Source of the DNA: a virus
Reading direction: 5' to 3' (one strand)
DNA length: 64,000 bases
Virus record (IMG/VR): IMGVR_UViG_3300025282_000024
In this document: positions 8,301 through 48,660 of the stretch, in pieces
Numbering within the stretch: position 1 is the first letter of the stretch
How the letters are laid out: every line of letters begins with the position of its first letter
Made by a program: the position numbers and the translations under genes
Notes under the pieces: generated by a model
What the model saw: the letters and a program-made list of their open reading frames with translations, nothing else
Told to the model about the DNA's origin: nothing
The model's database searches: none

Positions 8301-9269
8301 TTCCGGATCGTGCTGATTGCCAGCCATAAATCTGTCGTCATGTTTGTGGGCTCCTCCAAACCAAAGCGTCCCCATTATCTTGTCAAATTTATTGTTTTCT
8401 TGATCTGTTGATATAAAAAATACCATCCCTTGTTTCGGGATTGTAGAATTTTTAATGATAACAGAGCTAGCCACTCTTCCGTGCTTGGGATCCCAAAACT
8501 CAAACTCGCCTCCAGTAGCGTCTTCCAAATCCTCTAACATGCTCGATATATCCAACCTACATATTGCAATTGCTGCTAAATCAGATGGAAACGCAAGCCC
8601 TACTAATTCTTGTTTAATTTTAACTGGAATTTTATAGATTGTTCTTCCATCAGGCATAATATGTTGATATTTTTGTTTAATAAAATCTCTTTTGTTTTGG
8701 AGGCCGGCCTGAGCGTCTCCTAGTGTATTCATCGAATTTTCAACAATGTTGTCAAGTGTCCGGGAAGTGTATTTAAAATCCATATTATTGATTAATTGGA
8801 ATGGATGTGATGGTGGCCACTTAGGGCTTCCATCTTCTGTTTTATTGCCATCTAAATAAGCTAGCATGGTGCCTGGTATCGAAAAGCCAAATTTTTCTTT
8901 ATCTTTTTTTGATATATAATGTTGATAGGCTGCTTTGCCTTTTTCATTCTTAAAAGTTATAAGTTGAACTTTTACATATTTAAAAATGTCATCGACAAAC
9001 ATGCCCAAATCGTCAAATAATTCTTCCACTTCTAGAAGCAAATCATATGTTACAATCAATTTATTAGAAGAGGTAAAATCGGAGGCTGTAGGATCGCTAG
9101 TCCAGCCGCCGCTTCCTTCAGCCCTTTTATCAATATGCGCATCAATTGCCGACTCTCTATTTGCAGCAATCTCGTTTAAAGCGGCGCTCGCACCCTCAAG
9201 AGTAACTTTATTAATATAAATGTTTGGTAGTATAGAATTTACCAAGCCGTTAAAACTAAAATTTGCCAT
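5316..9269 (-). CDS. Large hypothetical virion-associated protein
   Basis: 1317-aa ORF, TAATG-coupled to the upstream gene. One FN3-like strand (YTFTDYDIQNISRGVFEYSLEVEV). No family recognised. Confidence 0.6.
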   Translation of the reverse strand: MANFSFNGLVNSILPNIYINKVTLEGASAALNEIAANRESAIDAHIDKRAEGSGGWTSDPTASDFTSSNKLIVTYDLLLEVEELFDDLGMFVDDIFKYVKVQLITFKNEKGKAAYQHYISKKDKEKFGFSIPGTMLAYLDGNKTEDGSPKWPPSHPFQLINNMDFKYTSRTLDNIVENSMNTLGDAQAGLQNKRDFIKQKYQHIMPDGRTIYKIPVKIKQELVGLAFPSDLAAIAICRLDISSMLEDLEDATGGEFEFWDPKHGRVASSVIIKNSTIPKQGMVFFISTDQENNKFDKIMGTLWFGGAHKHDDRFMAGNQHDPETAQPYLDYVMVNNSSVQDFRQVAEIKKQIFNFDAEKGLIFGGNYVNNQLTQVAAADFSNLACFGDLISTVNTKRQSKLLFSIDWGKLIKKYCMMPSLLDKLSNLGGGSFATGFLVNNGVPNIKSFKIYRKRVDTVGSSDVVNDTGRKLIYDGFPNIYYTGQLGNANVKKEELILEYDPPVKSALAPVKIENSTSNSAANASHITYYTFTDYDIQNISRGVFEYSLEVEVTDPTLNYFFNFYNQITFAISKLKPMVSFANGGYNPIHSSFGQNTIFNSQTGQFTKLAQQTFEKEGWSTLNTHGAIISAAEAVKSFSMLAQKKPMFQVEDLTDLLDVYTGSPESFNVFSEILILVADKIKSIINSYSTVQIPKVHSFSNPEPKAFGGMPLHSSPTKKIKVEHTFKKPTELVHTTHSDGGYDFLVGTTPSPLPNKTTAQIGLKAMLSNNYITRCLNEFNQYFPNFNGGPFVLPVKIPAYHGPQSNQKLNLNLMPSIGMHLKVPIGGTHLPKYIVDHQSNNENEYWMVVNNILRYKMGLYGDTNSDHKLGYGPDDKIDGSLGINDQMERILKEYQTLAYRGIYFPQDSVVDPLTATDLAASENKLIGDAEGAPNEQFSWDSGVNDPLPSNATLENLENAMPSDQLLKIMHVPWAQNYGQEKLLLSLINGTFIAPTVLDAKLGSFDPMLEKSILYKYVNNLYNSIFAHKSPGVGGVFLDTLYMQVLGDTAGKLQELPFQALALIANLNLESRVSLENFVSPAEELQVNPDFRYYLHGGNPQLYEKPAGIVPSNQDIQNQDLKIDKFGQFWFNHMNVVEVQYLAGYEGVKDIPKSVSNPDGNAKKYEEVFNASAKAPIWEPLTLTKLNAINAAVDQATAKGSSVHLLCRLVKRKYDIFNTKAYEVLDMQVYDGHFLLTTQHQIENLASNAYIDKFPDKKISAGAPGMQMVDTSLKDLSPSVGGIGEVDANEPLQPTVNDAADNEMNQAQQASPNTDNYNF

Positions 9270-10354
9270 TATTCACACGCATCCTCTATATCCACTATAT
9301 TCTGATTCTCGGCAGTGCCATATATATTAACGGGAGTGCCTTGGGGGCCAAGTGTATCATTACAATTAAATATCTTATCGATAAAGATATTTTTAACTTT
9401 ATCTTGAGTGTTTTGCAGATGACAAAATTCTTCTTCATCAATTTCAAAATCAACATCAATATCAAAATAATATTCAACATTCTTATCAGTAATGGCCCCG
9501 TTCTCATTAACAAAATATAATCTTTCTAAAATTTCAGGGCTTGTACCAACTGCATTGGAGGTAACCATATAAACTTCTAATTCAAAATTTTCTTTTTTGA
9601 ATTCCGTATTTGCCTCTTCAACTTTTAACATGGCGAAATCACCCAAAACCATAACATAAGAATCATCCATGAGCTTATATGGAGTATTTAGTCCATCTTC
9701 CGATAGGTGCATCTCCGCCTCTGTGGGCACTAAATCATATATTTCTGCAGGGATTTCATCTAAGTCCTTATAATTGGGGTCTGGAGGGTAAAAGCATGCC
9801 TTATACTTAATATCACACCCTAATTGAGGAATAAAAGTTGTAGGTACTGTAGTTGAGCCAGTATAAGAAGCGTTTGCAGATCCTGTCCATGCATAATCTA
9901 CAGAAATTAATTCTGCTTTATAAAACCCCACATCCCAAGCAGCTATATTATTTGAATTATATGCGGAACTGCCAATTGGGTTCATATAAATATAAGAGCT
10001 ATCTGGCGTTTCAAGAAGAAAATCAGAAGCTTCTTTCTGAGATGCAGCAACCACTCCGGGCATCAAATTATTAACATGTGTGCCATCCTCAGAAAATACT
10101 CCGACTTCGGCGGCCCTATAAATACTTTGAGGATGCAACCTTGGAGTCTCCTCTTGAATTCTCCCTTCGATATTATTTTGTAATTCAGCATCTGGGCGGG
10201 TCGACCCTGTGCCAACAAACTGTATATCATAAATTATATCATCATCAAAAAAAGCATATTGATGGGGCTTAAGTTTTCCTAACGAAAGCAAATATCTACC
10301 ATAGGATGTTAATTCTAGATTTAATGTTTCTTCTTTTGGATTCGCATATATCAT
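9269..10354 (-). CDS. Putative baseplate structural protein (N-terminus similar to 347..1321)
   Basis: 361 aa. LTSYGRYLLSLG...YAFFDDDIIYD parallels LTDAGRKRLAEG...YAFGDDEIDY. Confidence 0.6.
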   Translation of the reverse strand: MIYANPKEETLNLELTSYGRYLLSLGKLKPHQYAFFDDDIIYDIQFVGTGSTRPDAELQNNIEGRIQEETPRLHPQSIYRAAEVGVFSEDGTHVNNLMPGVVAASQKEASDFLLETPDSSYIYMNPIGSSAYNSNNIAAWDVGFYKAELISVDYAWTGSANASYTGSTTVPTTFIPQLGCDIKYKACFYPPDPNYKDLDEIPAEIYDLVPTEAEMHLSEDGLNTPYKLMDDSYVMVLGDFAMLKVEEANTEFKKENFELEVYMVTSNAVGTSPEILERLYFVNENGAITDKNVEYYFDIDVDFEIDEEEFCHLQNTQDKVKNIFIDKIFNCNDTLGPQGTPVNIYGTAENQNIVDIEDACE

Positions 10355-10408: not shown

Positions 10409-13400
10409 TTATTTGAGCTTAAGATCGTCTGCAGTTATTGATGCAAAATTTTCTTGGGCTTGTGCTTGTAATATTATAAATTGTTGAGGAGAAGATATAA
10501 GTGGAAGACTGCCAAGGGCGTTCTTGATAAAAGTATCAGGATCAGTTTCAGTAACAGAATCAGAAACGGGGGGAATAGTCCACAAAACTTCAAGTGGAAG
10601 TATCTTCAACATATCTATTATTGTTGGTGTGCTGATAGGCTCTGTTCTTGGGGTTAGCGTGACTGTCTCATTTATTTTTGCTAACTCAATTAATGAAAAG
10701 AAATCATAAGGCCAATTATAGCTATAATCGAGAGGCTTTAACCCTGGGACCGGGGCGGGGCCCGCTCCTGGTGGAGGAGGGCCTGGCATCATATTAGTCG
10801 CAGTTATATCATGATAAGACCAAGAAGCCTTTTGTTTAACTTTAAAAACCATCCATTGAATATTTTTTGGAAAGCCTATACCAGCAGGGCCAATCTTATC
10901 TCCGGGCACATCATTTAAGAGATCAAAGCCTTTGTTTGCATCTAAGACGTCCTCGGCTTTTGGTGGCGCCGGAGCTGGGCCAGTGTTAGTGGGGTCTGGC
11001 TTCCAAACCTCTCCGGCTAAAAGATTCATGCCAAAATCAATTTCAGAAACTGCACATTGAATTCCGCTGGCCGAGTCCGTTCTCTTTTCTGAGGGGAGTA
11101 CTCCCTGCCACATTTTAACCAAGTCATCTTGAGTAAAGTGGTGATCAAATTCAAATATGACCATAGCCATGGGTTCTTGATTTTTATTCATCAAGAAATT
11201 AAACCCAGGCGGAATAACATATTTTTTCATTGCCTTCACTAGATTAACAACTGATGGCGCAGGTTTATATTTTACGGCACCATCAACAGAACTAAGATTT
11301 TTTATTAAATAATCAATATCTTTAATTTCAGGATTAAGCAGCTTCGATTGAGCCCAGTCGATAGTTTTCCTATCTATGTGGAAAAAATTTCTACTGCCTT
11401 GAGAATCTTCATAAAACGGTACCGCAACAATTGCTTCACTTATAGTTTTGCCCTCTATGGGGATTTGGCCCAGCTTTTTACTTGGATTTAAATTAAAGCC
11501 TAATTTTTCTGCAAGATTTCCTACGGTGTCGTTATCTTGAGAGCCGCTGACAGGTTGGATTTCTAAGAATACGCCGCTGTCGGCAGAAGGGATAGTTCCA
11601 TATTGATGCCACATTCCCTTTGCAATTGACCATTCTCGATTTACGGTCTCAATAGAAGCGGTGATATTGGTGAAATCTAATATTGGACATTCCCACTTAG
11701 GTTGAATTACCCAGCGTGTTTTGCTACCTTCTGTAACAACTTGATTCCAATTTATAGAAGCACTTAGTTGCATAGCTGCTTGAGCTGCCGGCGGAACTGT
11801 GTTCAGAACATCCGGGGGCCAGCTGATTGCGACGGCCGCTCCAGAAGTTATCATGTCTCTGTAATATGAAGCTGTTATAGCTGACATTACATCTGTTATT
11901 GTTTTATAGCCACTAAATTCCGGAGTATAAGATATCTCAATATGACTATAACCATTGTAATACGGAGGAGTATATGGCTCAAAACTGCCAGTGGCTTTGC
12001 CGGCCCAACCAATACCTGGCGCATAGGCAGTATGGCTGCCGGCATATATTGGGGGGCCAAAAGAAGACCCATAAACAGGAATATGTGTGGTGTTGACCTG
12101 TACACCAACTGTATGTGTTCCAGAGAACCATGGTACTACGCCGCGGTTGTAACCGCTGTCGGAGGCCGTTAGACTTAAATATTTGGTTTGGTAGGTTCTG
12201 TCGAACGCCCGGTTATACATCATAATTGTGGGTGGGTTATATTCATAAGATGCACTATTGTTATAGCGAAGGGCGCCTGCCACAGTTGATGTATCCTGAA
12301 GGGTAGCAAGATCACGTATTTCTGAGTGGGAGCACACTATTCTCATTTTATACGTTTTATCTGCCGTAAAATAAATGAAATTGCCCTCGGCTTTTGCGCC
12401 TAAAGGATCCTCAAATAATGGGGCGCTCCCTTCTAATGTTTCTTTAGACACAAAAGTTGTCATTGGGCCATAATCATTATCATTTTTTCCATCGGTGGCT
12501 CCCAAAAAGAAGCGCGGAACCTCTGATGTAAAGTTATTAATTGCCATATTATAAAGATCATTTGCAGGCTTTCCAAAACTTCCGGTACTATCTATCGAAG
12601 AGGAGCGGTGTGTTTCGGCGTCCACTATTTTCCCAATGTCACTGAGCCAATAATCAGGATTTACGAGAGCCTCAAAAGGTGCCCTTTTTGTTGGCGGAGT
12701 TGTGGCTATACCAACATAGTGGTCTATTGCGTTTGCGGTTATATAATCTGTGAGTGATCCAGTAAACAGAGGATAGTCAACTGCCAATCCGGATTTAATT
12801 GAATTATATAATATACCAGGAGCAAAAAATGGTGTCATTAGAGTGCGCCAATTAGCCTCTGAGCCTGTTAAATCAGCATTAGGAGCATAAGATTGACTAA
12901 ACAACGTTGCTAGCTGCACTGACCTTTCAGAAGGATAAAAACCATCATAAGGAAGGAATTTCATGAGTGCATTACATTTAAGAGTGAGATTCGTAGGCAT
13001 TGCAACGCTTGAAAAGTCGCTGTCAATCGGTTGAAAATATTTCAAAAAATCAGCATTGCTATATACTGTGTAAAAAGAACCAGAGCCAAGCAACGTAGTA
13101 TCAGCGCTGCTACTTATAACTGATCCTGTCAAAGTTAGCCAACCAGGATTATCCGCCAAAAATCCACCAGAAGAAGCCATATCAACAACATGATATTCCA
13201 TATGCTCACTAATTCTATATTCTGGAACAATACCATAATCTTTTCCAATGCTTCTAACATCTTCAGCATATTCTTTATAAGTATTATAGGAAGGGTTATA
13301 TCCCGATTGCTCGCCAGCTTCCCATTCAGTTTGGCCAAGATAAAATGCTACAAATGGGCTGTCGGTGTACACTTGAGGAATTCTTCTGTTATATGTTGCG

Positions 13401-16400
13401 CCGGCAATTGGAGAGATAAGACCTGAATCTACGGGCCCATGCCAAATACTATAAGAGTTCTGAAGTTCACCTTCAGAGCCAGAACTGTATAATTCATTAC
13501 CCATAGTACGGAGTTCGCCTAAATCATCGGCGTCTAGAGACCATATACTGGCTGTTCTCCAAAAAGCAGTGTGAGAAGCAGTAATATATCCTTGCGAGTT
13601 TATTGTCTTAAGGTTTCTGTCTGCGCGCAGATCTTTCCAAAAATTGTTAATGAAGTTGGGTCTTTCCCTAACTAAGGAAAGATAGGTGTAATGTTCTCTT
13701 GGATAAATTCCCTCGCTTATCTGCATATGGCGAAATTCGTCTATTGGATTGGCATCTCCACTAATATATGTGGGAGTGTTCCACAACAAATATTTCTTTA
13801 ACGTATCGTATGCTAATATTGTATTATCTGCAGCCTGTAGAGTTTCCCCAATCTGGCCGGCCCTCGACCATACCAAATTTGAATTATTTAAATCAAGAAG
13901 ATTACTAATTTTTGGATCTGGAATATTTGTAAAATATGCTTTTTCATTACCATAAGAAGCCCACATATTGGTTGGTTGATTGTTGGGTGGTACTGAAAAA
14001 GGTTGATCTGATTTGTAAGTATATTGATATTTGAGTGGATTAAATTTTGAAGTAATTGGTGGCTCAACTTGTGATACAATACCATTATTATAACCAATGT
14101 AATCGCCGTCTACAATGGACGATGTAACTTTTGTAAATGTTTGAATGTTGTTCTTGTAATTATAGCGCATTACAGGATTCTGGGCACCTCTAATCTGTTT
14201 CCACGAGGGCCAGCCGTATGGGCCCTGACGATGTAATACAAGACCATTGAATGCAATTGGAGTGGATAAACCGGCGCCGGCAAATACTTTATCAATACCT
14301 GTGTTAGATGACGCGCTCAAAGTATTCTCATACGGAATAACGGGATCGTAGATTATGGAATTAATACCTGCAAAGTCCATTGGCGCTCCGGTGAGACCTC
14401 CATGCAATGATGGACTCCATTCACTGGCTGAAAGGAATGTAATATCAGTAGAAGCCAAACTAGCGTTGCTGAAATTTGGTTGTTCAAAACCATAGTACGC
14501 AGAGCCGGTATACCCATATATCACACTAGCTGTAATCCAAGTATACTGTAAGCTTGTTTGCAACATTTGATGTTGCACAAACCAGTTATCATATGTGGAA
14601 ACGGGGCCAATATATACTGCACCCTCTAACTTTTTGACGAGGGCACCGTTGTTATCTATTACCATATTGCTGGAAACCAAAGTTCCATCCAGCGATCCAT
14701 ATTGTGCCGGCAACGTTAAGCCTGATGTCCAACCTTCGCCACCCCACCAGGCTATTAAACGAGAAACTCTAGAATGTTTGCTTAAGTCTCCTGGGCCTTG
14801 GCGCTCTAAATCAGGATCAAAATTTGTGGTTCCATAATATATCTCTAGAATTTCAGACGCAGAACACTCGCGATGGAAAACACTAAGTTCGTCCAGAAAG
14901 CCTTGCCATGCTCGGCCGAGGCCAGATCTATCTCCTAAAAAGCAATCAGCACCTGTAATGCCTACATATGTGCCGGCTGGCGTTGTATCTTCTGTAACAG
15001 CTAAAGATAACCCATTCACATATATTGTAGGATCGTTAGCAACAGAAGTGGCATCATAAGTAACAGCAATGTGGGCCCACTCATTGGTATCAATAGTTGC
15101 AACCGTAGACCATTCCCCCACTGTAGTATTAAATCTCGCCCTGAAGTAGACTTTACCTGTGGAATCTACAGATAATCGAACGCAATCGGCAAAATCAAAT
15201 ATATGTGGATCATTGTTGCCGCCGGCGTGGCCTAGATTCATTGGATTTACCCAAGCAGAAAGGGTAAATGTTTGTGTAGACCCGACCGCGGTTCCAATGA
15301 GAGCGTCCCAAATTGCTGGGGCCCCAATATTTACACTATAAGCGCTTGGGGCAGTGGCGCCATTGAAATAGAGAACTTTATTATTGTGGTATTCTATCGC
15401 TCCCAGCTTCTTTTTACTATTTCTATTAACTTTGTGGAAAGAACCAGTCCCATCATAATTTGAAGCTTCTACTGAGCTACTGCCGCCAATATAAGGGACT
15501 CCGGCTAATGCATATGCCGCCACAGTTTGTGCATCACTAAAATATCCAAATTGGTTTGTGTGGTCTGTATACCACTCATTAAGAGGTGTTCTTACATTTA
15601 AATTTCTCCATGGAAGTGCATTATAAACACTATATTCTGCAGCTGCAAGATCAAGCATTCCTTCGCCCATCGTTGCAGGACTTCCGGGTGCGGAAAAGCG
15701 ATTAACTATAATAGATTTAGTACTACCAGTTAAGTCTCTTCTAGGTATAGCAAAATCAATAACACCAGTAACATATGTAGAGGGGGCATATGTTGTTGGC
15801 AAATTGCCATCAGATTCGGCTAAATATCTATTATTAATTGAGCGCCCGTTGGTCATCACCAATTCATAATTGTGTGAATAATTTCCTATATTTGTAGCAT
15901 CCAAAACTTGATCGGGGCGGCCAGGAATAGTAGAGGAAGACCCAGTAAACATTTTAATATTTCTGATATTCACTGGGCGTTTTGTTGACTCTCCCCTAAG
16001 CATGCTCCCCTTTTCAAGAGAAGGATCTACGGTCATACTATTATTAAAACCAGAACCAAAAGCGTAAAGACTACTGGCCGAAAACATAATCCTCCACCCT
16101 TCAATACGATTTGCCGCTGTATCTGGGCTTGTGTTCTGCGGCCTTAAATTGCTATATATGTGTCGATAAACTTTTCCTCCTACAAACTTTTCAGTAAAGG
16201 GGGATTGTATAGGGCGCCCATAAAGCGGGCCATAAGTATCTTCATGAAGGTTGGTTATATCTATGCCAGCTTTAAAATTATTAGCAACAGCATCGTGATA
16301 TCCTCCCGAAAGGGAAGCGCTGTATATATCAAAAGGCGTGTATAAGTCTCCTTTTGAATTTAAATAAGACTTGTCTACTTCTGTTAATTTAAAATTTGTA

Positions 16401-37355: not shown

Positions 37356-37661
37356 TTATTTATCTCCACTCTGGATTATATCAAAAAGATGCTCCTTATC
37401 TTCATCATTTAATTCTAAAGAGTCGTCCCGCCTTTTGTTTAAAATTGCAGTAATTTTAACTAACTGCTCATTAGAGCGCTGCAGGGTTTCAACATATTTA
37501 GAAGCAATCATGCCTAATTGTTTGTGGTTCTCTAAATCAGAGGTTTTTTTCATCTCCAATAAAAGATCTGTTAATAAGGTACTTGTTATCGCTCGATCAT
37601 TTCTAATGTTTTTTATTGACTCTTCAATATAGTCATTAATGTCCTCTACTCTTCTTCCCAT
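37356..37661 (-). CDS. Hypothetical helical protein
   Basis: 101 aa, overlaps the end of the sigma gene, coiled-coil character (KYVETLQRSNEQLVKI). Confidence 0.7.
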   Translation of the reverse strand: MGRRVEDINDYIEESIKNIRNDRAITSTLLTDLLLEMKKTSDLENHKQLGMIASKYVETLQRSNEQLVKITAILNKRRDDSLELNDEDKEHLFDIIQSGDK

Positions 37662-38887: not shown

Positions 38888-39121
38888 TTATGCCTTGTTG
38901 TCTGTATCTGTGGTATCTACATTTTGTTGTAAACTTTCTTCAAAATTATCATCAAATTTAACAAGCGGAGGATTTATAACCACCAATCCATGTGGGGAAT
39001 CTTTTATCTTAAAGCCGCTCAATACCGGAACAATATCAGATTGCTCCATTAAACTTTTTTGTAGCGCCATCATAACAGCTCCCACGGCTTGATCTGACAT
39101 TCGCATTTCTTTTAATTTCAT
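38888..39121 (-). CDS. Hypothetical protein
   Basis: 77 aa, ATGA overlap with gmd, SD GGAG. Confidence 0.7.
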   Translation of the reverse strand: MKLKEMRMSDQAVGAVMMALQKSLMEQSDIVPVLSGFKIKDSPHGLVVINPPLVKFDDNFEESLQQNVDTTDTDNKA

Positions 39122-42375: not shown

Positions 42376-43207
42376 CTTCTATCCTCCTTATTTTTTTCCT
42401 TACAATTTCCCAAATATTATATTCATCCAAAACCTTATTCCTGCTTCTTCTTAACGATTCTATCGTTTCATCGGTAACAGGAGCTTCTAATATTTTTTTT
42501 ATTTTTGCGGCGGGATCAGGATCATACAAATCTATGCATCGGTAACTCAAGGGATCAAAAAAATCATCTATATTAGGGCAGCCCCAATATATTGGGATAG
42601 ACCAAGAAAGATACGCATCCGCTAATTTCTCAGTCCAATAATTTTTCTCTTGAGAGTTTTCTAATACAACACTATAAGTATAGGGAGACAAGCCACGTAA
42701 TTTGCAATTACCATCATAATTTAATTCCCCCTTATAATTTTTTTTATAATCCTGTTTATTATGACCTCTTCCATAAAGATCGATCATATTTTCATTTGTG
42801 ATCAATTTCTTAACAAAATTTTGTCTATGATTGTGCTTTGATGAAACTACACAACTAATTTTTTTTTCTTTCTCAGGATAAGGCATTTCTTTTAGCTGGT
42901 CATAACTTCTGTTTACCCACCATGTTATACCACAATGAGTGTTTTCCCATATAAGCATATGCTTGAATGTTCTGGATAGCTTTTCTATAAAATTTGGTTC
43001 ACGTTTAATATATATTGTTTTGTCAGGATCAATATTATAATTCGTATTTTTTCCTCCAAGAATTATATAATAATCAGCATTATTGATATTTGAGACGCCC
43101 ACAATATCTTTCCAGACACCAGAAAGGCCCGGTGTTTGCTTATTATAGCGTTGCAATAAACTAGCCGGGTACTCATTCCACGAATTTATAAAGAAAACTT
43201 TGTTCAT
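42365..43207 (-). CDS. GT10-like (alpha-1,3-fucosyltransferase family) glycosyltransferase
   Basis: IDLYGRG..YTYSVVLENSQEKNYWTEKLADAYLSWSIPIYWG matches the GT10 EN..Y.TEK motif. Confidence 0.88.
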   Translation of the reverse strand: MNKVFFINSWNEYPASLLQRYNKQTPGLSGVWKDIVGVSNINNADYYIILGGKNTNYNIDPDKTIYIKREPNFIEKLSRTFKHMLIWENTHCGITWWVNRSYDQLKEMPYPEKEKKISCVVSSKHNHRQNFVKKLITNENMIDLYGRGHNKQDYKKNYKGELNYDGNCKLRGLSPYTYSVVLENSQEKNYWTEKLADAYLSWSIPIYWGCPNIDDFFDPLSYRCIDLYDPDPAAKIKKILEAPVTDETIESLRRSRNKVLDEYNIWEIVRKKIRRIEDAN

Positions 43208-43228: not shown

Positions 43229-45277
43229 TCACTTATCTTCATTATAATTCCCTTTTATTAAAATAACATCCTTTCTATCTTTTTCTTCATCGCGATTTTC
43301 TTTCATTTTTATCATACCCTGCAGGGATAAAAATTTCAAGCCGTGGGCATAGATGTGTTTTTTTGAATTATATAAGATATCTCGCGCATCATCAACATAG
43401 TATCTGAGATATGGATTATGAGAAGAAACATTTTCAGTAAATGGAATTGTATTTGATGGTAAATGAATAACATCAAAATCGCGACATGCACGCTTTCCAT
43501 ATAAGGACAATGGGGCGCTACCTCCAACACAGAAATCTTCTAAGTCTAAGTCGCTATTTTCAATTATATGCTTAGTCTCTTTTACAAACTGCTTAATGTT
43601 TGGTGTATTAAATGCGCCCACCTTTGAAGTGTTTATAAATTCTAAAGTAGGTTCGTGGAATGCAATAGTTGCATTTCTCCAGGCCTCTTCGTAAGTGTCT
43701 GTGGTATGTACGCTTGGCTTTCCAATACCAACAACATCTCTAATTTCATTTTTTACGCGTGTGGCTGTTTCTGGGCCGGCACATTCAAATAAAATAACCT
43801 TTACTGCGCTTCCTTTAGAAAAATTTAAATTAGCTTGTTCATGAGCGCCTGGATATCCATTTGTTTCATTGCCAAGCCACGTTTCGTCAGAATAGGAAGA
43901 GATAACATAATTTAATTTACCAGTATCACTAAGTTCAATATCCTTTTGATAAATAACAGAGACATTGTTTTTTGTAAAAATCTGAGAGATTTTATCAAAA
44001 TGAGGCTGACAATGGGCACAAAGAGATGTCACAAATACATTTTTCTTTAGTCTCATGTATTCTAGAGCCATGGCATCTGCCGTGTCTCTGTCTAGACCCG
44101 TTGGGACAATATCCCTCTTATTTAAAAAATAATCCGCAGAACACATTAATTGGCCCGCATCTGGGGCACTTTCTTTGCAAATGAGGGGTACACCATAGGT
44201 AATGGCCGCGGCGGTGCGGTGAGCACCATTTAAAAGCATGTGGTTGTCGTTTACAGGAACAAATGACTTCTCTTCATCAAAACCTGTTGTTTTCATCTCC
44301 TCCAAGATCGAGTGATAGGCATTATAAAAATCTTCTAAATTGTTTTTAGCAGGTCTCTTTTCGGTAAACCCACCCCATACTTCCAGGTGATTTTCATATA
44401 CTGATTTTGCAAAAAAGTCTTCTACGCCTTTTTCACGATGCCGAGCATATAAAGTCTTTGCTGGTAGGTCAAACCTCCAGGCAGTCAAAAGTTCGGTCGC
44501 ATCATCAATGACAAACCTATCTTTGTATTTACTTTTAATGCCATAAACCCTTGAATACTTAGGTTTGCGTCGAATCTCTGACTCATATGATAGTTGTTTT
44601 TTACGCTTTTCTGGTACTACATGATCGTTATTGTCATGAAGATTATAAACATATATTAACTCTTTGACAAAAGATATTTTATCCCCAGCCATCTCCAGCA
44701 TGGGAAACATAAAAGCTAAATCCCAAGCAGCTTCGTAAAAATTATCTTCTTTATTTTTAAGATCTTCTACTTTGATCTGTTTCCAAAGATGATATTTGAA
44801 GGTTCTTAAGGCTGAAGTCATCCATGGGGAATTCCTGTAAGAGCGATTTCTTATTATTTTTTTAGGAACTGCCTTCTCACAGAATTTGCTGCGCTCTCCA
44901 GAAGGATAAAGTACATGGCTTCCATAAGTCAGCCAACAATCATCACTATAATATTTACATAATGTCGATAATACTTCGGCATTCGCAAACCAGTCATCTC
45001 CATCTAAAGAAACAATTATATCTTCGCCTTTTGGGTCTGAAACATTGATAGCATTATAAATATTTTCTAGGGCGCCCACATTCGTTTTATTCTGAATCAA
45101 AGTAAACCGAGAATCTGTTTCAATTTCTCTTTTAATAATAGAAACACTATCATCAGAGGAAGCATCATCAACCAGCACACATTGAAAATCTGTATATTTT
45201 TGTGCTTTGATACTGCGTATACACGCTTTAACCCACTTTTCCACATTGTAAAGAGGGACAATTATTTTAAAATGCAT
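43229..45277 (-). CDS. GT2 glycosyltransferase fused to ParB/Srx-like and pol-beta nucleotidyltransferase-like domains
   Basis: N-terminal IIVPLYNVEKW..VDDASSDDS..LDGDDW (GT-A); central LLNGAHRTAAA (DGxHR-like); C-terminal VGGSAPLSLYGKRACRDFDV (hGGS..DhD). The GT2 call is strong; the other two are inferred. Confidence 0.8.
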   Translation of the reverse strand: MHFKIIVPLYNVEKWVKACIRSIKAQKYTDFQCVLVDDASSDDSVSIIKREIETDSRFTLIQNKTNVGALENIYNAINVSDPKGEDIIVSLDGDDWFANAEVLSTLCKYYSDDCWLTYGSHVLYPSGERSKFCEKAVPKKIIRNRSYRNSPWMTSALRTFKYHLWKQIKVEDLKNKEDNFYEAAWDLAFMFPMLEMAGDKISFVKELIYVYNLHDNNDHVVPEKRKKQLSYESEIRRKPKYSRVYGIKSKYKDRFVIDDATELLTAWRFDLPAKTLYARHREKGVEDFFAKSVYENHLEVWGGFTEKRPAKNNLEDFYNAYHSILEEMKTTGFDEEKSFVPVNDNHMLLNGAHRTAAAITYGVPLICKESAPDAGQLMCSADYFLNKRDIVPTGLDRDTADAMALEYMRLKKNVFVTSLCAHCQPHFDKISQIFTKNNVSVIYQKDIELSDTGKLNYVISSYSDETWLGNETNGYPGAHEQANLNFSKGSAVKVILFECAGPETATRVKNEIRDVVGIGKPSVHTTDTYEEAWRNATIAFHEPTLEFINTSKVGAFNTPNIKQFVKETKHIIENSDLDLEDFCVGGSAPLSLYGKRACRDFDVIHLPSNTIPFTENVSSHNPYLRYYVDDARDILYNSKKHIYAHGLKFLSLQGMIKMKENRDEEKDRKDVILIKGNYNEDK

Positions 45278-46104
45278 TTCTCAACTACCTCGGCAATTTC
45301 TTGTCTTTTCTCAACAAAACACTTTATCAAATCTGAACCTTTCTTCTTAAACCATGGTTCTTTTGTGGCGCCCACTAAATCATTAGTTATTAAGCTCATG
45401 TTCATCATTCTTGCTTCAACCACTATCCTGGAAAAAGTCTCCGGCGTTGAAGGAAAAAATATTAAATTTTCATTTTTGGATATATTTTCTAAAAATATAT
45501 TTGGTGGTGCGGGATCTATTAGCTCATAATCAATGCCCTTAATACGACAATATTCAATTGACCCGACTGTATTCTTATGTGCGATATGAGAATTCATAAT
45601 AGAGCTTTTTTCATTTTTAGTCTTTTTGGAGAGGTCCTCTAGAAGCTTAAGCGTTTTGAGCGACCATAAGTTTCCACTTAAATTAACAATGTTGTTGAGT
45701 GATAAATTAACCCTTACAATATCGGCATGAAATTTAGTTTGACACAAAATAGCTTGTGCATTTTTATAAAAATCAAAATTAATTATTTCTGTTTTGGGAG
45801 CAATAAAATCCGGATAATTCGCAGGATTTCTGGTTTTAAGATATTTGTGATCATGCTCATAGATCACATAAGGCAACGAGCCCTCTGTAATTTTGTCTTT
45901 TACAGAGGGCTCTAAATTGATAAAGTTAGATATGATTGCACCATCCATATCATTTAACGACTTGTTAGTGACCAAATGACTTTGCAAACTGACAACATCG
46001 TGACCATTTTTTTTCAAGATACAAATTAATTCTTCATTGTTTAATTCGCCACCCCCAACCAAATGTTCAGCAAAAAAGTCAGCTATAAAAAGCAACTTAG
46101 TCAT
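45262..46104 (-). CDS. GT-B fold (GT4-like) glycosyltransferase
   Basis: GGGELN near the N-terminus; PETFSRIVVEARMMN matches E-x7-E. Confidence 0.7.
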   Translation of the reverse strand: MTKLLFIADFFAEHLVGGGELNNEELICILKKNGHDVVSLQSHLVTNKSLNDMDGAIISNFINLEPSVKDKITEGSLPYVIYEHDHKYLKTRNPANYPDFIAPKTEIINFDFYKNAQAILCQTKFHADIVRVNLSLNNIVNLSGNLWSLKTLKLLEDLSKKTKNEKSSIMNSHIAHKNTVGSIEYCRIKGIDYELIDPAPPNIFLENISKNENLIFFPSTPETFSRIVVEARMMNMSLITNDLVGATKEPWFKKKGSDLIKCFVEKRQEIAEVVEKCILK

Positions 46105-47380
46105 ACTTTTCTTCGTTCAACTCATTAAGCCAACTTTGCACATCTACGCTCTCTGAAGCATATTCCTTTAGACAATCATTAAATGCCTTATACTGTTTTT
46201 CTTCACTGAAATTTTTTAATACCCATTTCTGAAGATCTTTGGCCTGCTTTTTAAATCTACCATAGTCTTTATAAATCTCTCTTAATTTCATTTTATAAGA
46301 GCCGGGTTGTGCATATGCCCACATTGAGCCTTTTTCTAATACACCATCCCAAACAGCATGATCGGGTATTGGCTGAATATCATAGCCCACTTTTCCAAAA
46401 TGAGCTTTCATTTTTTCTTTGCCAGTTTTCTTATCTTTTTTAGGTGCAAAAAGAAAATCTATATGGCCGCTCCATGCCGGAGCCACCACTGGAAGTCCTG
46501 AATATGCAGCCTCAAACAACGGTAGCCCAAAGCCCTCGCCATGGGTTAAAGAAACTAAAGCTTTAATTTTTGGATGTTTATACAAAGAATGCATTTCTTC
46601 ATCCGACATATCTCCATGTAAAAGATATATTTTGCATTGCCTATTTTCGTACTGTTTCAAAAAGTTTGTAATTGTTTTCGTCGTATGTTCACGATCAATA
46701 ATTGAATTACCCTTTGTAAAGGCTTTCACAACTAAACCAACATCCGGATTGTCAATAAATTCCTCAACAAACCACTTAATAGTATTAGATAAATTTTTTC
46801 TTGGGCCCCACTGAGCTACCGTGAGGAAATTAAAATCAGTCTTTAGATCTAAATTTACATTAACATCTTCATATTGTTTTACTGGATAGTGTACAACCTC
46901 TACATCCTTTTGGCATTTTAGTTCAGCCTTCTGGCCTGTATTTTTATCTACGCCATCATACGTAGTTTTTAAAAACACTTGTTTAGAATGTTCCGATACC
47001 GTAATTACCTTATTCATATGATTAACTTTTTCAAGCCAAACCGGAGATACTCTAGTTGTTTCAATTCCAGCAGTTACACCAATATTAACCGGTGCCATTT
47101 GCTGCCATTCATTTGGAATTGTAACCTGTATACTAATATCGTATTGGGGACGTCCCTGCGTTTGATGGTGATACGCGGCGGTTTTTTGAATTAAGCTATC
47201 TAGCCACCGGCGTTCGTCATTATCTTCGTGTATCCAGCCGCATTGACCCCACGGTACCGGCAATACATGTATATCATATACATCTTCAACTGCTTTGAGA
47301 GCCCTTAAAACAAATCTTCCATGTTCTCCGTAACCAGATCGAGTCAAAACTGGCGCTCTTACTATTATTTTTTGTTTCAT
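46097..47380 (-). CDS. GT4-family glycosyltransferase
   Basis: SGYGEHGR, WGPRKN, THGEGFGLPLFEAAYSGLPVVA. Start moved to MKQKII at 47380, which is TAATG-coupled to the upstream gene. Confidence 0.9.
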   Translation of the reverse strand: MKQKIIVRAPVLTRSGYGEHGRFVLRALKAVEDVYDIHVLPVPWGQCGWIHEDNDERRWLDSLIQKTAAYHHQTQGRPQYDISIQVTIPNEWQQMAPVNIGVTAGIETTRVSPVWLEKVNHMNKVITVSEHSKQVFLKTTYDGVDKNTGQKAELKCQKDVEVVHYPVKQYEDVNVNLDLKTDFNFLTVAQWGPRKNLSNTIKWFVEEFIDNPDVGLVVKAFTKGNSIIDREHTTKTITNFLKQYENRQCKIYLLHGDMSDEEMHSLYKHPKIKALVSLTHGEGFGLPLFEAAYSGLPVVAPAWSGHIDFLFAPKKDKKTGKEKMKAHFGKVGYDIQPIPDHAVWDGVLEKGSMWAYAQPGSYKMKLREIYKDYGRFKKQAKDLQKWVLKNFSEEKQYKAFNDCLKEYASESVDVQSWLNELNEEKYD

Positions 47381-48660
47381 TATAGTTCCTTTAATTCCCA
47401 ATTAGTATAGCCATGGCGAGTTTCCCAAGATCCCATTTCTTCATGTATTGTAGTTAATGTTTTTTCCCATGAACTACAATAGTTTTCGAAATTATAATTT
47501 TTTACAACATGATCACGGCCTAATTTTCCCATTTTTTCTCTTTTTTTCTTCGGCATTTCATACATTTTTAACATAGCATTGATACAATCTTCTCCTGATA
47601 TACGATCTTCGTAGATCCATGGAATATCTTGAGAACCAATAACTGCCTTCGAAGCTGGTTCAATACCAATCCCAAACCAATTTTTTCCATCTGTAACTTG
47701 CTCTTGAAGGCCACCCGTCATATTAACAATAATAGGAGTTTCACAAGACAAGGATTCAAGCGTAGCCAAGCCGAAGCCCTCTGCATCAGCAATATTAATA
47801 GTGCAATCACACATGTTATACATCAAAGACAGCACCATCGGATCAACCTTTTGTTGAGAAAATAATACTTCTCCGTTGGTCAAGCCCAATTCTAGGAGTA
47901 TCGCCTCTAGATCTTGGCCATGTTGATCTTTGACATCAGTGTGCATAATCAATGATGCCTTGTCGTGCCCAACTTTATCTAAAAACTCTTTAAACCAAAA
48001 AATCAAAGAGCCGCTCTGTTTTCTTCTAGCATTTCTATTATTCCAAAAAAATAAAAATTTACTTTCATCATATTCGTTTCCGAAAGACTTGCCAAAAGAA
48101 TTTTTTGCAAAATTATCAACATCTTCTACAGGATGTTTCGAAAATATTTGTGAATCCACCGCATGCGGCAGATACATAGATCTTACATTTGGAGAAACGT
48201 TTTTAACAACATCATCAGTTACTTTTGAAATGGTTGCAATAAAATCATTTGATTCATAATATTTTTTATTATACGTTGGATAGGGTCGATTATCCCAAAC
48301 ATGGTAATAAACCATTGGCACCAAGGGACGAATCTCATTTTCCATTTGCCACAACCAGCCAAAGAATCTAGGATCAGTCATAAACCAAAGAATATCTGGT
48401 TTTTCTTGTCTCAAGATAGAACGAAGTAGATCCGGGTTTCCATACCCATCAACCGGCAATGTTATCCAGTCTTCTCCATATTCCTCCGTCTTAATAGGCT
48501 GATAAGTCTGATGTTTCATTGCCCCACCAAGACTAAAAAATTTAAACTTTCCAGTCTTTAACATCGCCTCAATCATATATTTAGTTTGTGTGCCAACTCC
48601 AGATGGAGCAAAAGGCATATCACTAATTGTTAAAACCTTAATCTTTTTTTGTGTTTCCAA
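47380..48660 (-). CDS. GT4-family glycosyltransferase
   Basis: TTG start after GAGGG; SGVGTQ, NRNARRK, AEGFGLATLESLSCETPII. Confidence 0.9.
   Translation of the reverse strand: METQKKIKVLTISDMPFAPSGVGTQTKYMIEAMLKTGKFKFFSLGGAMKHQTYQPIKTEEYGEDWITLPVDGYGNPDLLRSILRQEKPDILWFMTDPRFFGWLWQMENEIRPLVPMVYYHVWDNRPYPTYNKKYYESNDFIATISKVTDDVVKNVSPNVRSMYLPHAVDSQIFSKHPVEDVDNFAKNSFGKSFGNEYDESKFLFFWNNRNARRKQSGSLIFWFKEFLDKVGHDKASLIMHTDVKDQHGQDLEAILLELGLTNGEVLFSQQKVDPMVLSLMYNMCDCTINIADAEGFGLATLESLSCETPIIVNMTGGLQEQVTDGKNWFGIGIEPASKAVIGSQDIPWIYEDRISGEDCINAMLKMYEMPKKKREKMGKLGRDHVVKNYNFENYCSSWEKTLTTIHEEMGSWETRHGYTNWELKEL

Follow-up and report, generated by a model that had tools for sequence, protein, structure and literature searches.

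The question raised by this locus is why one short tripeptide abounds in some tail proteins of a phage and is scarce in others, beside a cluster of genes for sugar synthesis and transfer. The DNA analysed, here called the window, is a stretch of 64,000 nt of the IMG/VR record IMGVR_UViG_3300025282_000024, from an uncultured marine T4-like phage. The tripeptide, hereafter the tag, is [ST]-[GA]-S (Ser/Thr-Gly/Ala-Ser).

Gene content of the locus

The tail and glycan genes of the window, with the features by which they were identified, are:

9269..10354, minus strand: p361, a small protein with three TGS tags
10409..21055, minus strand: p3548, a giant tag-rich baseplate or fibre protein (40 tags)
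21062..22933, minus strand: p623, tag-rich (13 tags), directly after gp6
22933..24729, minus strand: gp6-like inner baseplate wedge protein (phrog_219), in which the tag is avoided
24762-25157, minus strand: gp25, inner baseplate/hub-side (Pfam GPW_gp25)
25228-32259, minus strand: p2343, inner baseplate or hub-side, tag below expectation
32284-33273, minus strand: p329, inner baseplate or hub-side, tag below expectation
37646..38335, minus strand: gp55-like late sigma factor, between glycan and baseplate genes (phrog_234, E = 6.9e-6)
39118-40095, minus strand: gmd (NCBIfam equivalog cut-off passed, 438.6 vs 415)
40092-40925, minus strand: SDR epimerase/reductase (Fcl model 53 bits, cut-off 500)
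41587-42375 and 40964-41590, minus strand: two FkbM-family methyltransferases (Pfam Methyltransf_21, NCBIfam fkbM_fam)
42365..43207, minus strand: GT10-type fucosyltransferase (Pfam Glyco_transf_10, E = 2.7e-12)
43229..45277, minus strand: GT2 (GT-A) fusion of 682 aa (Pfam Glycos_transf_2, residues 5-131)
45262..46104, minus strand: U280, 280 aa, candidate compact glycosyltransferase (atlas look-alikes)
46097..47401, minus strand: GT4-B (Pfam Glycos_transf_1)
47380..48660, minus strand: GT4-A (Pfam Glycos_transf_1)
48670..49662, minus strand: PD-(D/E)XK nuclease, a syntenic neighbour for which no functional role is claimed (Pfam PDDEXK_1)

The initial annotation had placed a late sigma factor and a structural module next to the sugar genes, in agreement with the identification of the phrog_234 sigma factor, gp25 and gp6; homologs of the sigma factor were found in Flavobacterium phage immuto, Microcystis phage Mel-JY01 and LR756508. 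Its gene list stood for gmd, the SDR and the two FkbM methyltransferases, whereas of the five glycosyltransferases it counted, four (GT10, GT2 and the two GT4s) were recovered by Pfam. The fifth, U280, had no match in Pfam or NCBIfam; its atlas look-alikes are viral hypothetical proteins, with Glycos_transf_1 in some related clusters, and it is a candidate glycosyltransferase as a lead only. In the GT2 protein, the GT-A domain is joined to approximately 450 aa of other domains. Judging by their profile matches, gmd and the SDR are proposed to synthesize a GDP-6-deoxyhexose donor, a class of sugar rather than a single one, since the SDR lies far below the Fcl cut-off.

The tag is in excess in selected tail proteins

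Exact counting gave 40 tags in p3548 (3548 aa) against 9-11 expected from shuffles, 13 in p623 (623 aa) against 3-4 expected (3.4 by shuffling), and three, all TGS, in p361 (361 aa) against 0.3 expected, one stretch of which reads WTGSANASYTGS. Elsewhere, none was found in the 598-aa gp6-like protein, two in the 1317-aa p1317 and one in the 2343-aa p2343. The figures of the initial annotation (13 in the 623-aa and, by eye, about 40 in the 3548-aa protein, a cluster in 9269..10354, none in gp6 and very few in the 1317- and 2343-aa proteins) were thus accurate. The enrichment also persisted in the shuffle check set beforehand, with z values for p3548, p623 and p361 of 10.6, 5.4 and 5.1 against whole-protein shuffles, and of 9.1, 4.4 and 3.6 when shuffling was confined to 10-residue blocks.

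The excess in these three proteins is order-specific. In p3548, [ST][GA]S occurs 40 times, [ST][GA]T 11 times, S[GA]T five times and the remaining permutations 15-19 times, in agreement with the earlier remark that T-x-S is commoner than S-x-T. When all tripeptides of the three proteins were scanned, TGS had the highest rank among those with real counts (20 vs 2.8 expected), followed by SAS (15 vs 3.7 expected). Codons at the tag sites of p3548, p623 and p361 are varied and track overall Ser usage, indicating that the tag is no nucleotide-level signal. A hydrophobic residue often precedes the tag, as had been noticed (30 of 56 sites; background 0.32), and one directly follows it at 26 of the 56 sites.

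Along p3548, tags are distributed over the entire length. Two large tail-module proteins, p1317 with its two tags and p1234 with none, show no excess, an observation that counts against the sequon reading.

Recurrence in relatives and avoidance in the inner baseplate

The excess recurs in every one of approximately 70 homologs (z 3-9). In family tallies over these relatives, which pool related sequences, it amounts to 3.8x for p3548 (1449 tags vs 381.5 expected), 4.6x for p623 (672 vs 146) and 14 tags vs 5.0 expected for p361, with the [ST][GA]T control, which shares the phylogeny and is not a formal correction, at about 1.0 in the p3548, p623, gp6, p2343 and p329 families. The gp6 family holds 13 tags vs 67 expected (0.19x), below all 11 control patterns (0.67-1.41x), among which [ST][GA]T, [ST][GA]N and [ST][GA]D remain at 0.95-1.41x. 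Low values were likewise obtained for the families of p2343 (59 vs 85.5, or 0.69x, the lowest among its pattern set), p329 (7 vs 18.2, or 0.39x) and gp25 (1 vs 6.4). The gp6 proteins of immuto, Mel-JY01 and the relative G002 contain no tag and that of LR756508 contains one. In non-structural proteins the tag is neutral (1.23x) and not depleted, so that a cytoplasmic enzyme reading the tripeptide alone would have to rely on further context or on late timing.

Post-gp6 tail proteins are also enriched in the distant relatives in culture, immuto, Mel-JY01 and Rhodothermus phage RM378, and the tag-rich post-gp6 proteins of these phages and of the window have no mutual similarity by blastp. A position-by-position scan in four phages returned only S or T at position 1, G over A at position 2 and only S at position 3. 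TGS takes first and SGS second place among all tripeptides, both proteome-wide in a complete relative and in the structural region of Mel-JY01. With its excess of 4-5x, the tag is real, sharply defined, and independent of fold and descent. No excess was detected in T4 gp7-12, wac, gp18 and gp34-37, nor in S-PM2 gp6, its 3048-aa neighbour, gp8 and the 2320-aa protein; no S-PM2 record was among the tblastn matches of GT4-A. Thus, the check on co-occurrence came out in favour of the association, with excess and GT4 pair together in four deeply diverged phages and the excess absent from T4 and S-PM2.

A conserved GT4 pair and a hypervariable sugar cassette

Relatives of GT4-A were found in 123 viral contigs, at 59-71% identity. 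Both GT4s retain the catalytic motifs R/K and E-x7-E in their alignments: R209, K214 and E294-x7-E302 are invariant in GT4-A (31 homologs), and R201, K202 and E289-x7-E297 are conserved in GT4-B. Across 80 loci, a conserved nuclease-GT4-GT4 core (76, 76 and 71 loci for nuclease, GT4-A and GT4-B, respectively) is followed by a hypervariable sugar cassette, in which U280 is present in 44 loci, GT2 in 15, gmd in 11, GT10 in four and FkbM in none. The pair also occurs in immuto, Mel-JY01 and RM378, with hosts from three phyla, at 26-34% identity between phages of Bacteroidota, Cyanobacteria and Rhodothermus. The nuclease has counterparts in immuto, Mel-JY01 and LR756508; the RM378 ORF at the nuclease position, annotated as "similar to DNA polymerase I", had no blastp match to the window nuclease.

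GT4-A was carried by all five large contigs with a p623 homolog, and no relative lacking the GT4 pair was found, the pair being a core gene of the clade. Since pair and tag are both universal in one clade, shared ancestry is inseparable from function, and the link between them is correlative. LR756508 carries GT4-A, lacks GT4-B throughout its 484 kb and has a tag excess of just about 2x, a single case (n = 1) that is suggestive and in line with the GT4 pair as reader.

GT4-A and GT4-B are predicted to form a heterodimer, with ipSAE values of 0.86, 0.86 and 0.85 (best control 0.06) that express model confidence, from alignments built in this analysis; 58 of 80 solved complexes, but 2 of 110 mismatched pairs, attained this mark. 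The predicted complexes shared at least 97% of their contacts between runs, with partner pLDDT of at least 88. The nearest solved structure to both proteins is chlorovirus NY-2A B736L (3oy2; E = 1.6e-12 and 2.2e-8), and a match to Gtf1 was marginal (E = 0.003); by such comparisons, the GT4s are not close to any known protein O-glycosyltransferase. Transmembrane segments were found in none of the nine glycan proteins, and no flippase, polymerase, priming transferase or export component in the glycan gene cluster, which argues for a cytoplasmic acceptor. In addition, a relative rated 100% complete, in which the pair is present, has no ThyA-family (ThyA-type hydroxylase/hydroxymethylase) gene, and the window showed neither a kinase nor any other enzyme that might read the tag.

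Placement of tags in structures

The AF2 model of p623 (pLDDT 79) consists of tandem Ig/FN3-like beta-sandwiches, and Foldseek returned solely Ig/FN3-type matches. In this model, tags fall within parts whose fold is predicted with confidence, the majority of them at the ends of strands or in hairpin turns. Six tag columns are kept by more than 60% of p623 homologs, in the manner of structural residues; outside them, 5.1 tags per sequence occur across 62 columns, vs about 2.1 expected for the entire protein. The sheath protein of a relative has 11 tags vs 2.0 expected within residues 1-682 and none in its C-terminal core, where the expectation is merely 0.46, and four of the five tags in a relative's major capsid protein (MCP) lie outside the gp23 core match. 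As regards turns, the expectation that sites would map to exposed turns was borne out by the strand ends and hairpins of p623; the sites in non-core sheath and capsid regions also came out in its favour. At the N-terminus of the immuto "tail spike", SAS-type tags recur in short repeats, 6 and 9 residues apart, and a tag-rich 426-aa protein of G002 has short structural-looking repeats; in these two proteins the tag could be part of the fibre repeat.

Proposed virion O-glycosylation and alternative explanations

The best explanation, to which we assign a probability of roughly 55%, is cytoplasmic O-glycosylation of exposed virion proteins at [ST]-[GA]-S, primed by the GT4 pair. The tag, usually with hydrophobic flanks, would be a sequon in a clade of Far-T4-like phages, with peripheral baseplate and fibre proteins as targets and, in relatives, also outer parts of sheath and capsid. 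A soluble GT4-A/GT4-B heterodimer, in which GT4-A is proposed to be the catalytic half and GT4-B its predicted partner in priming, would recognise the tag on late proteins and attach the first sugar(s) to Ser or Thr. The lineage-specific cassette (in the window phage gmd and SDR, GT10, the GT2 fusion, U280 and the two FkbM methyltransferases) would then supply donors and extend and decorate the glycan, and inner baseplate proteins, with surfaces buried on assembly, would be under selection against the tag. We infer that the tag carries a modification in the form of a glycan, with the GT4 pair as its reader, and likewise which residue accepts; the putative glycan may serve in shielding, stability or adsorption. 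The acceptor-sequon reading of the initial annotation accordingly gains from the shuffles, placement, co-occurrence, gp6 avoidance and predicted heterodimer, the glycan itself staying at the level of a proposal; extension and O-methylation by the remaining genes is plausible in the window phage but not general, given the hypervariable cassette. A literature search for [ST]-[GA]-S as a glycosylation tag found no publication. If true, this would be a sugar-attachment signal not described before, read by a conserved phage enzyme pair.

A statistical or compositional origin of the excess, as an artefact of low complexity rich in Ser/Thr/Gly/Ala, is very improbable. Although the enriched proteins are above average in S, T, G and A, and other permutations of these residues are mildly up in p3548 (1.4-1.9x), z remains about 9 after 10-residue-block shuffles, the excess is order-specific, tops unbiased tripeptide scans with diverse codons, and is reproduced in approximately 70 homologs and four divergent phages; persistence under composition-matched local shuffles ruled against this candidate. 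An unmodified tight-turn, beta-bulge or fibre-repeat motif (hydrophobic-[ST]-G/A-S-hydrophobic) in beta-rich outer virion proteins, the glycosyltransferase cluster then serving another purpose, is an unlikely reading that nevertheless suits the position of many tags at beta-sandwich strand ends or hairpin turns, the six conserved p623 positions, the periodic repeats of immuto and G002, and the hydrophobic residues on both sides. It fits poorly with the occurrence of the tag across unrelated folds and proteins (Ig-like p623, p3548, sheath, MCP and fibres), with the lack of enrichment in p623 of turn-formers that have T, N or D as their third residue, and with the absence of such a bias from T4 and S-PM2 fibre and baseplate proteins. 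Moreover, tags turn over across 62 columns of the alignment at a maintained number, and a merely passive preference for a structure would leave unexplained the 5-fold avoidance in gp6, where [ST][GA]T/N/D stay near or above expectation.

Enrichment combined with avoidance argues for an enzyme as reader without naming one. The tag might thus be read by an enzyme other than the GT4 pair, or for phosphorylation, acylation or another late modification, while the GT4s and cassette modify phage DNA or the host envelope, the latter for exclusion of other phages or serotype change; we regard this as quite improbable. The GT4 pair does always lie outside the tail operon, beside the PD-(D/E)XK nuclease and genes of replication, and resembles no proven protein O-glycosyltransferase. 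Phage glycosyltransferases acting on DNA and host surface glycans are, moreover, described as well known (PMC12619734, PMC13326640), which favours this alternative. On the other side, the check on DNA or LPS as target found nine soluble proteins in a cluster without membrane, export, flippase, polymerase or lipid-priming component, and a complete relative without ThyA-type hydroxylase or hydroxymethylase. Glycans of several sugars with methylated 6-deoxyhexose are typically those of proteins or polysaccharides, which also counts against it. The conservation of the pair over phages of Bacteroidota, Cyanobacteria and Rhodothermus makes a host-specific acceptor unlikely, the tag itself offers two hydroxyl residues, and the window revealed no rival reader.

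Comparison with known systems

Mycobacteriophage glycosyltransferases modify the phages' own structural proteins, with the glycans proposed as a particle shield (Freeman et al. 2023, via PMC12619734), and the glycans are located at the C-termini of capsid and tail-tube subunits (PMC12619734). A sequon with inner-protein avoidance is absent from the summary given in PMC12619734. Phage-encoded glycosyltransferases acting on the phage's own virion proteins are common to both cases, demonstrated there and proposed here; however, the tripeptide described here is dispersed in baseplate, fibre and sheath proteins, and the phages are T4-like myoviruses that infect Gram-negative bacteria and cyanobacteria.

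Chloroviruses encode gmd and other sugar enzymes, and their major capsid protein is glycosylated by virus-encoded cytoplasmic glycosyltransferases with glycans that contain methylated and 6-deoxy sugars and have N-linkages at atypical positions. Among solved structures, B736L is the nearest relative of both GT4 families, but the similarity is confined to the GT-B C-terminal half, the linkage would here be of O-type at [ST]-[GA]-S, and the chlorovirus host is eukaryotic. TibC and AAH, acting on TibA and AIDA-I, respectively, carry out cytoplasmic Ser O-glycosylation of folded beta-structure at a short strand-loop-strand element, with ADP-heptose as donor and the beta-helix repeats of one passenger domain as acceptors. 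The tags at strand ends and hairpins with hydrophobic flanks are reminiscent of this, whereas enzyme family and quaternary structure differ, and paired GT4s and a variable extension cassette are absent there. The general O-glycosylation of Bacteroidota uses the sequon D-[ST]-[AILVMT]; it is a lipid-linked system of the periplasm that includes a flippase and an oligosaccharyltransferase. It shares with the present case a three-residue O-sequon on many proteins, and the hosts of the clade include Bacteroidota (immuto, Flavobacterium); nevertheless, the sequon is different, the enzymes here are soluble and phage-encoded, and the tag is identical in phages of cyanobacteria and Rhodothermus.

In the accessory Sec systems of Gram-positive bacteria, the priming pair GtfA/GtfB is present in all loci of serine-rich repeat adhesins, where the number of further glycosyltransferases varies, leading to different glycans (PMC6973325). 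DUF1975, the domain joining GtfA to GtfB, was not found here by Pfam, sequence similarity is marginal (Gtf1, above), and GtfB is a non-catalytic chaperone whereas GT4-B retains R/K and E-x7-E. Acceptors here are mostly single tripeptides on folded beta domains instead of long disordered repeats, and the products are virion proteins, with no SecA2/Y2 export. Likeness lies in two adjacent GT4 genes for a predicted heterodimer, in the constancy of this pair next to an extension cassette that is hypervariable, and in alternating-Ser acceptors, including the SAS-type repeats of the immuto tail spike. By analogy, the paired-GT4 architecture of these phages would parallel that of GtfA/GtfB on serine-rich adhesins.

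Over-representation of [ST]-[GA]-S in a subset of structural proteins

The initial annotation had singled out the tripeptide [ST]-[GA]-S (hereafter, the tag) as unusually frequent in a few virion proteins, and the counts bear this out. In total, 40, 13, and 3 tags were found in the 3548-, 623-, and 361-aa proteins (p3548, p623, and p361; proteins are named by their length) against 9.1, 3.4, and 0.3 expected, and each of the other large proteins of the window, including the adjoining gp6, contains 0-2. All the relevant genes lie on the minus strand and are listed here in the order of transcription:

48670-49662, -, PD-(D/E)XK nuclease, first in this order, before the GT4 pair
47380-48660, -, GT4-A glycosyltransferase (Pfam Glycos_transf_1)
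46097-47401, -, GT4-B glycosyltransferase (Pfam Glycos_transf_1)
45262-46104, -, 280-aa unknown protein
43229-45277, -, 682-aa GT2 fusion protein
next, -, GT10 fucosyltransferase-like protein
next, -, two FkbM methyltransferases, an SDR, and gmd
next, -, gp55-like late sigma factor (PHROG), between gmd and the baseplate module
next, -, start of the baseplate module: p1354, p329, p2343, and gp25
22933-24729, -, gp6-like baseplate protein
21062-22933, -, p623, tag-rich
10409-21055, -, p3548, tag-rich
9269-10354, -, p361, tag-rich
5316-9269, -, p1317
1382-5086, -, p1234

The excess persisted when sequences were shuffled in blocks of 40, 20, or 10 residues (z about 9 for p3548), and it was specific for residue order, with only 11 occurrences of [ST][GA]T, 5 of S[GA]T, and 15-19 of other permutations in p3548. 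In an unbiased scan, TGS led all tripeptides with real counts in over-representation (20 vs. 2.8), and hydrophobic residues were enriched immediately before and immediately after the tag. The codons used at the tag are diverse, which places the signal at the protein level and rules out a DNA-level motif as its source. Internal tandem repeats were also rejected as the cause in the window, since no sequence context recurs among the tags of p3548 and p623, and those of p3548 are spread over all 3548 residues. No excess was found in p1317 (2 tags) or p1234 (none), two large proteins that are encoded after the tag-rich ones within the tail module; neither matched a Pfam or PHROG family.

Enrichment in outer proteins and avoidance in inner proteins

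Tags were also tallied by family over the non-identical orthologs pooled from 80 loci surrounding GT4-A in relatives, which are related sequences and not independent counts. In these tallies, the p3548 family contains 1449 tags against 381.5 expected (3.8x) and the p623 family 672 against 146 (4.6x), whereas the gp6 family contains 13 against 67 (0.19x). Low values were also obtained for the gp25 (1 vs. 6.4), p329 (7 vs. 18.2), and p2343 (59 vs. 85.5) families. In gp6, the tag was by far the lowest of 11 related patterns (range, 0.67x-1.41x), including [ST][GA]T (0.95x), [ST][GA]N (1.08x), and [ST][GA]D (1.41x), and these control patterns have the same phylogeny as the tag in the pooled tallies; in p2343, the tag was likewise the lowest of its pattern set. 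The non-structural proteins of G002, a complete 184-kb relative that stood in for the full genome of the window phage, were neutral and not depleted (31 tags vs. 25.2 expected). From T4, we take gp6 and gp25 to be buried in the baseplate. Specific avoidance in buried proteins beside enrichment in peripheral ones is hard to explain by a fold preference; both would be expected if the tripeptide were recognised by an enzyme.

The placement of the tags was judged at the level of secondary structure and domains. The AlphaFold model of p623, built on a 67-sequence alignment (pLDDT 79, pTM 0.65), consists of beta-sandwiches in a row, and a Foldseek search against the PDB returned only Ig/FN3-like chains, with no baseplate protein among the matches. 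In nine of the 13 tags, one or more residues lie in a loop that directly abuts a strand, as in the hairpins at 472-474 and 582-584, and all 13 lie in 10-residue blocks of mean pLDDT >= 67, indicating that they are on folded domains and not in disordered tails. In G002, the tail sheath protein was enriched (11 tags vs. 2.4 expected) and the major capsid protein weakly so (5 vs. 1.5). Every sheath tag falls within residues 127-601, N-terminal to the conserved domains (subtilisin-like and C-terminal); what is informative here is that the N-terminal two-thirds show a 5-fold excess, the lack of tags in the conserved C-terminal third being uninformative because only 0.46 were expected. Four of the five capsid tags lie in residues 164-240, outside the match to the gp23 core. 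The only non-virion ORF of G002 with a nominal excess is a DnaB-like helicase (L172:11506-12897; 3 vs. 0.6, z = 3.1), which is compatible with chance among 163 ORFs.

The tag across a clade of T4-like phages

Searches of GenBank phages yielded no nucleotide match to the window and none to p623 (blastn, tblastn); IMG/VR contains at least 85 relatives of p623. The tag excess was present in essentially every one of them (z 3-9), down to 42% identity. In the alignment of 67 p623 sequences, six tag positions are kept in more than 60% of the sequences; outside these, 5.1 tags per sequence are distributed over 62 columns, whereas about 2.1 would be expected in the entire protein, implying that individual tags come and go at a steady total.

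Through GT4-A and gp6, the closest cultured phages are Microcystis phage Mel-JY01, Flavobacterium phage immuto, and Rhodothermus phage RM378, together with the uncultured 484-kb phage LR756508, relatives that by sequence belong to the 'Far-T4' neighbourhood. The gp6, gp25, and late sigma factor of the window were identified as T4-type by PHROG and Pfam; the best matches, the cultured Mel-JY01 and immuto and also LR756508, stand at 30-34%, cyanophages match the N-terminus only, and GT4-A is common to the window and RM378. From these genes, the window phage is thus classed as a probable Far-T4-like myovirus of the RM378 group rather than with the Tevenvirinae or the cyanophages; the usual capsid marker, g23, lies outside the window.

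In immuto and Mel-JY01, proteins encoded directly downstream of gp6 are enriched in the tag: 53 against 12 expected in the immuto 'tail spike', which has only 3 [ST][GA]T, and 13 against 2.3 in a 1336-aa protein of Mel-JY01. No enrichment was found in gp6 or the non-structural genes of these two phages. RM378 shows an excess in an ORF cluster at 64-78 kb and none in its major head, sheath, and portal proteins. By blastp, the tag-rich proteins of the cultured relatives have no similarity to those of the window. Most of the tags of the immuto tail spike (L163:35287-38448) are in its serine-rich N-terminal ~600 aa, made of short repeats ([ST]-A-S-[YF] and [ST]-G-S-F, spaced 6 and 9 residues apart), and these repeats do contribute to its tag count.

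A position-by-position scan gave one definition in four phages: S or T, then G over A, then S only. In whole-proteome scans without pre-selection, TGS and SGS ranked first and second in G002 and in the structural region of Mel-JY01, and high in immuto and RM378; they were missing from the top lists of T4, S-PM2, and the non-structural regions. No excess was found in T4 gp7-12, wac, gp18, and gp34-37, or in S-PM2 gp6, its 3048-aa neighbour, gp8, and a 2320-aa protein.

A conserved glycosyltransferase pair and a variable sugar cassette

GT4-A and GT4-B match Glycos_transf_1, the domain model of retaining GT-B enzymes of family GT4, with 41.7 and 35.9 bits, respectively (cut-off, 26.4). Residues R209, K214, E294, and E302 of GT4-A are invariant in 31 homologs; GT4-B shows no variation at R201, K202, and E289, and conservation of at least 90% at E297. 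Both families therefore retain the basic phosphate-binding residues and the E-x7-E motif in the C-terminal domain, which we take to be the GT4 catalytic signature. The best solved relative of both is the chlorovirus GT4 B736L.

The two genes are adjacent and co-conserved. Among the 80 loci, the nuclease is present in 76, GT4-A in 76, and GT4-B in 71, with the downstream genes far more variable: the 280-aa protein in 44, GT2 in 15, gmd in 11, GT10 and the SDR in 4 each, and FkbM in none. According to their annotation, immuto and Mel-JY01 keep the nuclease-GT4-GT4 order, followed by a different sugar cassette. RM378 also has the pair (L168:8212-11893; p014 matches the GT4-B profile, E = 5.5e-10), with no sugar cassette beside it; the ORF in the position of the nuclease is annotated as 'similar to DNA polymerase I' and has no blastp match to the nuclease. 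A UDP-galactopyranose-mutase-like gene elsewhere in RM378 (L170:12985-14136) hints at a galactofuranose donor. The Mel-JY01 homolog of GT4-A (L162:19998-21489) is annotated as two ORFs of 190 and 302 aa, jointly full length; either the gene is split or the record contains a frameshift. Some relatives have a GT4-B homolog that reaches 660-700 aa through fusion to an extra domain of ~250 aa (L084:11233-13224, L094:5562-7673, L102:10767-12755, L110:6748-8850, and others).

GT4-A and GT4-B are predicted to form a heterodimer. The modelled complex, computed with alignments built in this analysis, gave ipSAE values of 0.86, 0.86, and 0.85 against 0.06 for the best control. These values express the confidence of the model; of the reference pairs, 58 of 80 solved complexes and 2 of 110 mismatched ones attained this level. 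At least 97% of contacts recur between runs, partner pLDDT is >= 88, and in the predicted interface the C-terminal strand 420-426 of GT4-A packs against GT4-B residues 257-266.

All five large contigs with a p623 homolog also carry GT4-A, and no relative lacking the pair, the within-clade negative control, was among those tested (5/5 positive). LR756508 may be a natural case of partial loss (n = 1): it has the nuclease and GT4-A (L182, LR756508.1 297435-314706; also L166), no GT4-B was found anywhere in its 484 kb, and its ORFs following gp6 show only about a 2-fold tag excess (9 vs. 4.2). The coincidence of GT4-B absence with a weak excess in this single phage is suggestive.

As for the cassette of the window, four of the five glycosyltransferases initially counted are recognisable, the fifth, the 280-aa protein, being only a candidate. 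The product of gmd passed the GDP-mannose 4,6-dehydratase (Gmd) model TIGR01472 (NCBIfam equivalog; 438.6 bits vs. a cut-off of 415); the SDR is not a canonical Fcl (NCBIfam), and the product is given by class only, as a GDP-6-deoxyhexose. The GT2 domain covers only residues 5-131 of the 682-aa fusion; for the other ~450 aa, the Pfam scan at E <= 0.01 gave no match. The T4-type late promoter TATAAATA has 15 matches against 9.2 expected, none of them informative as to when the GT genes are expressed. Upstream of the glycan cluster, the minus strand also carries:

51250-52560, -, PIN-PhoH fusion
54195-54632, -, phage-encoded tmRNA, a full-length match to Rfam RF00023 (87.2 bits vs. a gathering score of 47)
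55901-58615, -, 904-aa protein with a C-terminal SET methyltransferase domain
62271-63266, -, adenylosuccinate synthetase

ARAGORN reported no tRNA or tmRNA in the window, missing the RF00023 tmRNA.

Proposed mechanism and alternative explanations

On the best reading of these data, exposed virion proteins are O-glycosylated in the cytoplasm by phage-encoded enzymes, with the tag as the sequon. A glycan would be primed at the tag by the GT4-A/GT4-B complex and extended by a lineage-specific cassette, in the window phage by means of a GDP-6-deoxyhexose pathway, GT10, the GT2 fusion, and two O-methyltransferase candidates. The probability of this mechanism as a whole is estimated at about 0.55. 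Of the initial proposal of a virion O-glycosylation sequon, the tag observation was confirmed, and the glycosylation interpretation is partly supported, strongly but circumstantially. A wider reading is more tentative, a little short of even odds: an abundant T4-like clade infecting at least three host phyla would coat exposed tail, sheath, and head with phage-made glycans at [ST]-[GA]-S, using two active GT4s as a dedicated heterodimer, with a hypervariable cassette diversifying the glycan and inner virion proteins purged of the sequon.

A compositional artefact as the cause of the tag excess is excluded, its probability being negligible. It is unlikely that the tag is a purely structural motif of turns or fibre repeats: although tags placed at strand ends, the six conserved positions of p623, and the periodic repeats of some fibres fit such a role, this explanation does not account for the specificity of the third position, the occurrence of the tag in unrelated folds, its absence from T4 and S-PM2, or its avoidance in gp6.

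It is rather improbable that something other than the GT4 pair reads the tag while the sugar genes act on the host envelope or on DNA. Each of the two, the tag and the GT4 pair, is universal within the clade, so that their co-occurrence does not count as phylogenetically independent. As to the acceptor, a TM-like segment is missing from all nine glycan proteins (19-residue Kyte-Doolittle mean at most 1.13), and the cluster itself, apart from anything the host may encode, includes no Pfam family of a flippase, ABC exporter, polymerase, or membrane priming transferase, the components typical of a lipid-linked surface polysaccharide or O-antigen pathway. This points to a cytoplasmic acceptor. Regarding DNA, a ThyA-family pyrimidine hydroxymethylase/hydroxylase is described as supplying the hydroxylated base for DNA base glycosylation (PMC13326640). 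G002, a GT4-A carrier rated 100% complete, has no match to the ThyA family (PF00303), which speaks against DNA glycosylation by the usual hydroxylated-pyrimidine route. A NAR 2026 paper on glycosylated 5-hydroxycytosine deals with arabinosylation in Straboviridae, with no mention of GT4, fucose, or methyltransferases.

Implications

Phage-encoded virion glycosylation has so far been documented for mycobacteriophages, at protein C-termini. If the wider reading is true, no earlier system is described in which tailed phages of Gram-negative bacteria or cyanobacteria glycosylate proteins at a sequon, the virus would have a variable O-antigen-like coat, and glycosylated sites in metagenomes could be predicted from sequence alone. 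If the tag serves as a sequon, abundant T4-like phages of marine and fresh waters would commonly have glycosylated virion surfaces, predictable from sequence and linked to a defined, testable enzyme pair, and many 'LPS-like' sugar gene islands of aquatic phages could then be machinery for variable virion glycan coats. A coat of this kind would have consequences for adsorption, the stability of particles, grazing, and evasion of host defence. Mass spectrometry can put the hypothesis directly to the test, since the cultured phages immuto, Mel-JY01, and RM378 carry the same signal. Moreover, outer enrichment combined with inner avoidance is a general bioinformatic signature, usable for finding other virion modification systems.

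Comparison with known systems

No publication on such a sequon in phages was found in the literature, nor anything relevant on O-glycosylated phage tail proteins; glycosyltransferases are not mentioned in the study of Far-T4 phages by Roux et al. (2015). The closest functional analogue of the GT4-A/GT4-B system is GtfA/GtfB, the O-GlcNAc priming complex of serine-rich repeat adhesins, a conserved two-protein GT complex that primes Ser/Thr in the cytoplasm, with extending GTs that vary between loci and with DUF1975 mediating the interaction between GtfA, GtfB, and the acceptor (PMC6973325). The serine-rich repeats of the immuto tail spike resemble those of Gram-positive adhesins, and their SAS-type units strengthen the likeness. 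Nevertheless, the pair stands outside the GtfA/GtfB family, because DUF1975 was detected in neither GT4-A nor GT4-B (Pfam scan, E <= 0.01), sequence similarity to that family is marginal, and, whereas the second subunit of GtfA/GtfB is a non-catalytic chaperone, GT4-B keeps its R/K residues and E-x7-E and looks catalytic.

In mycobacteriophages, virion glycans are placed at the C-termini of capsid and tail-tube subunits, according to the summary in PMC12619734. The candidate sites described here are instead dispersed through baseplate, fibre, and sheath proteins, and only one of the capsid tags of G002 is C-terminal; the system is thus not of the mycobacteriophage type. The system would join two known themes, phage-encoded virion glycosylation and cytoplasmic O-glycosylation primed by a GT pair.
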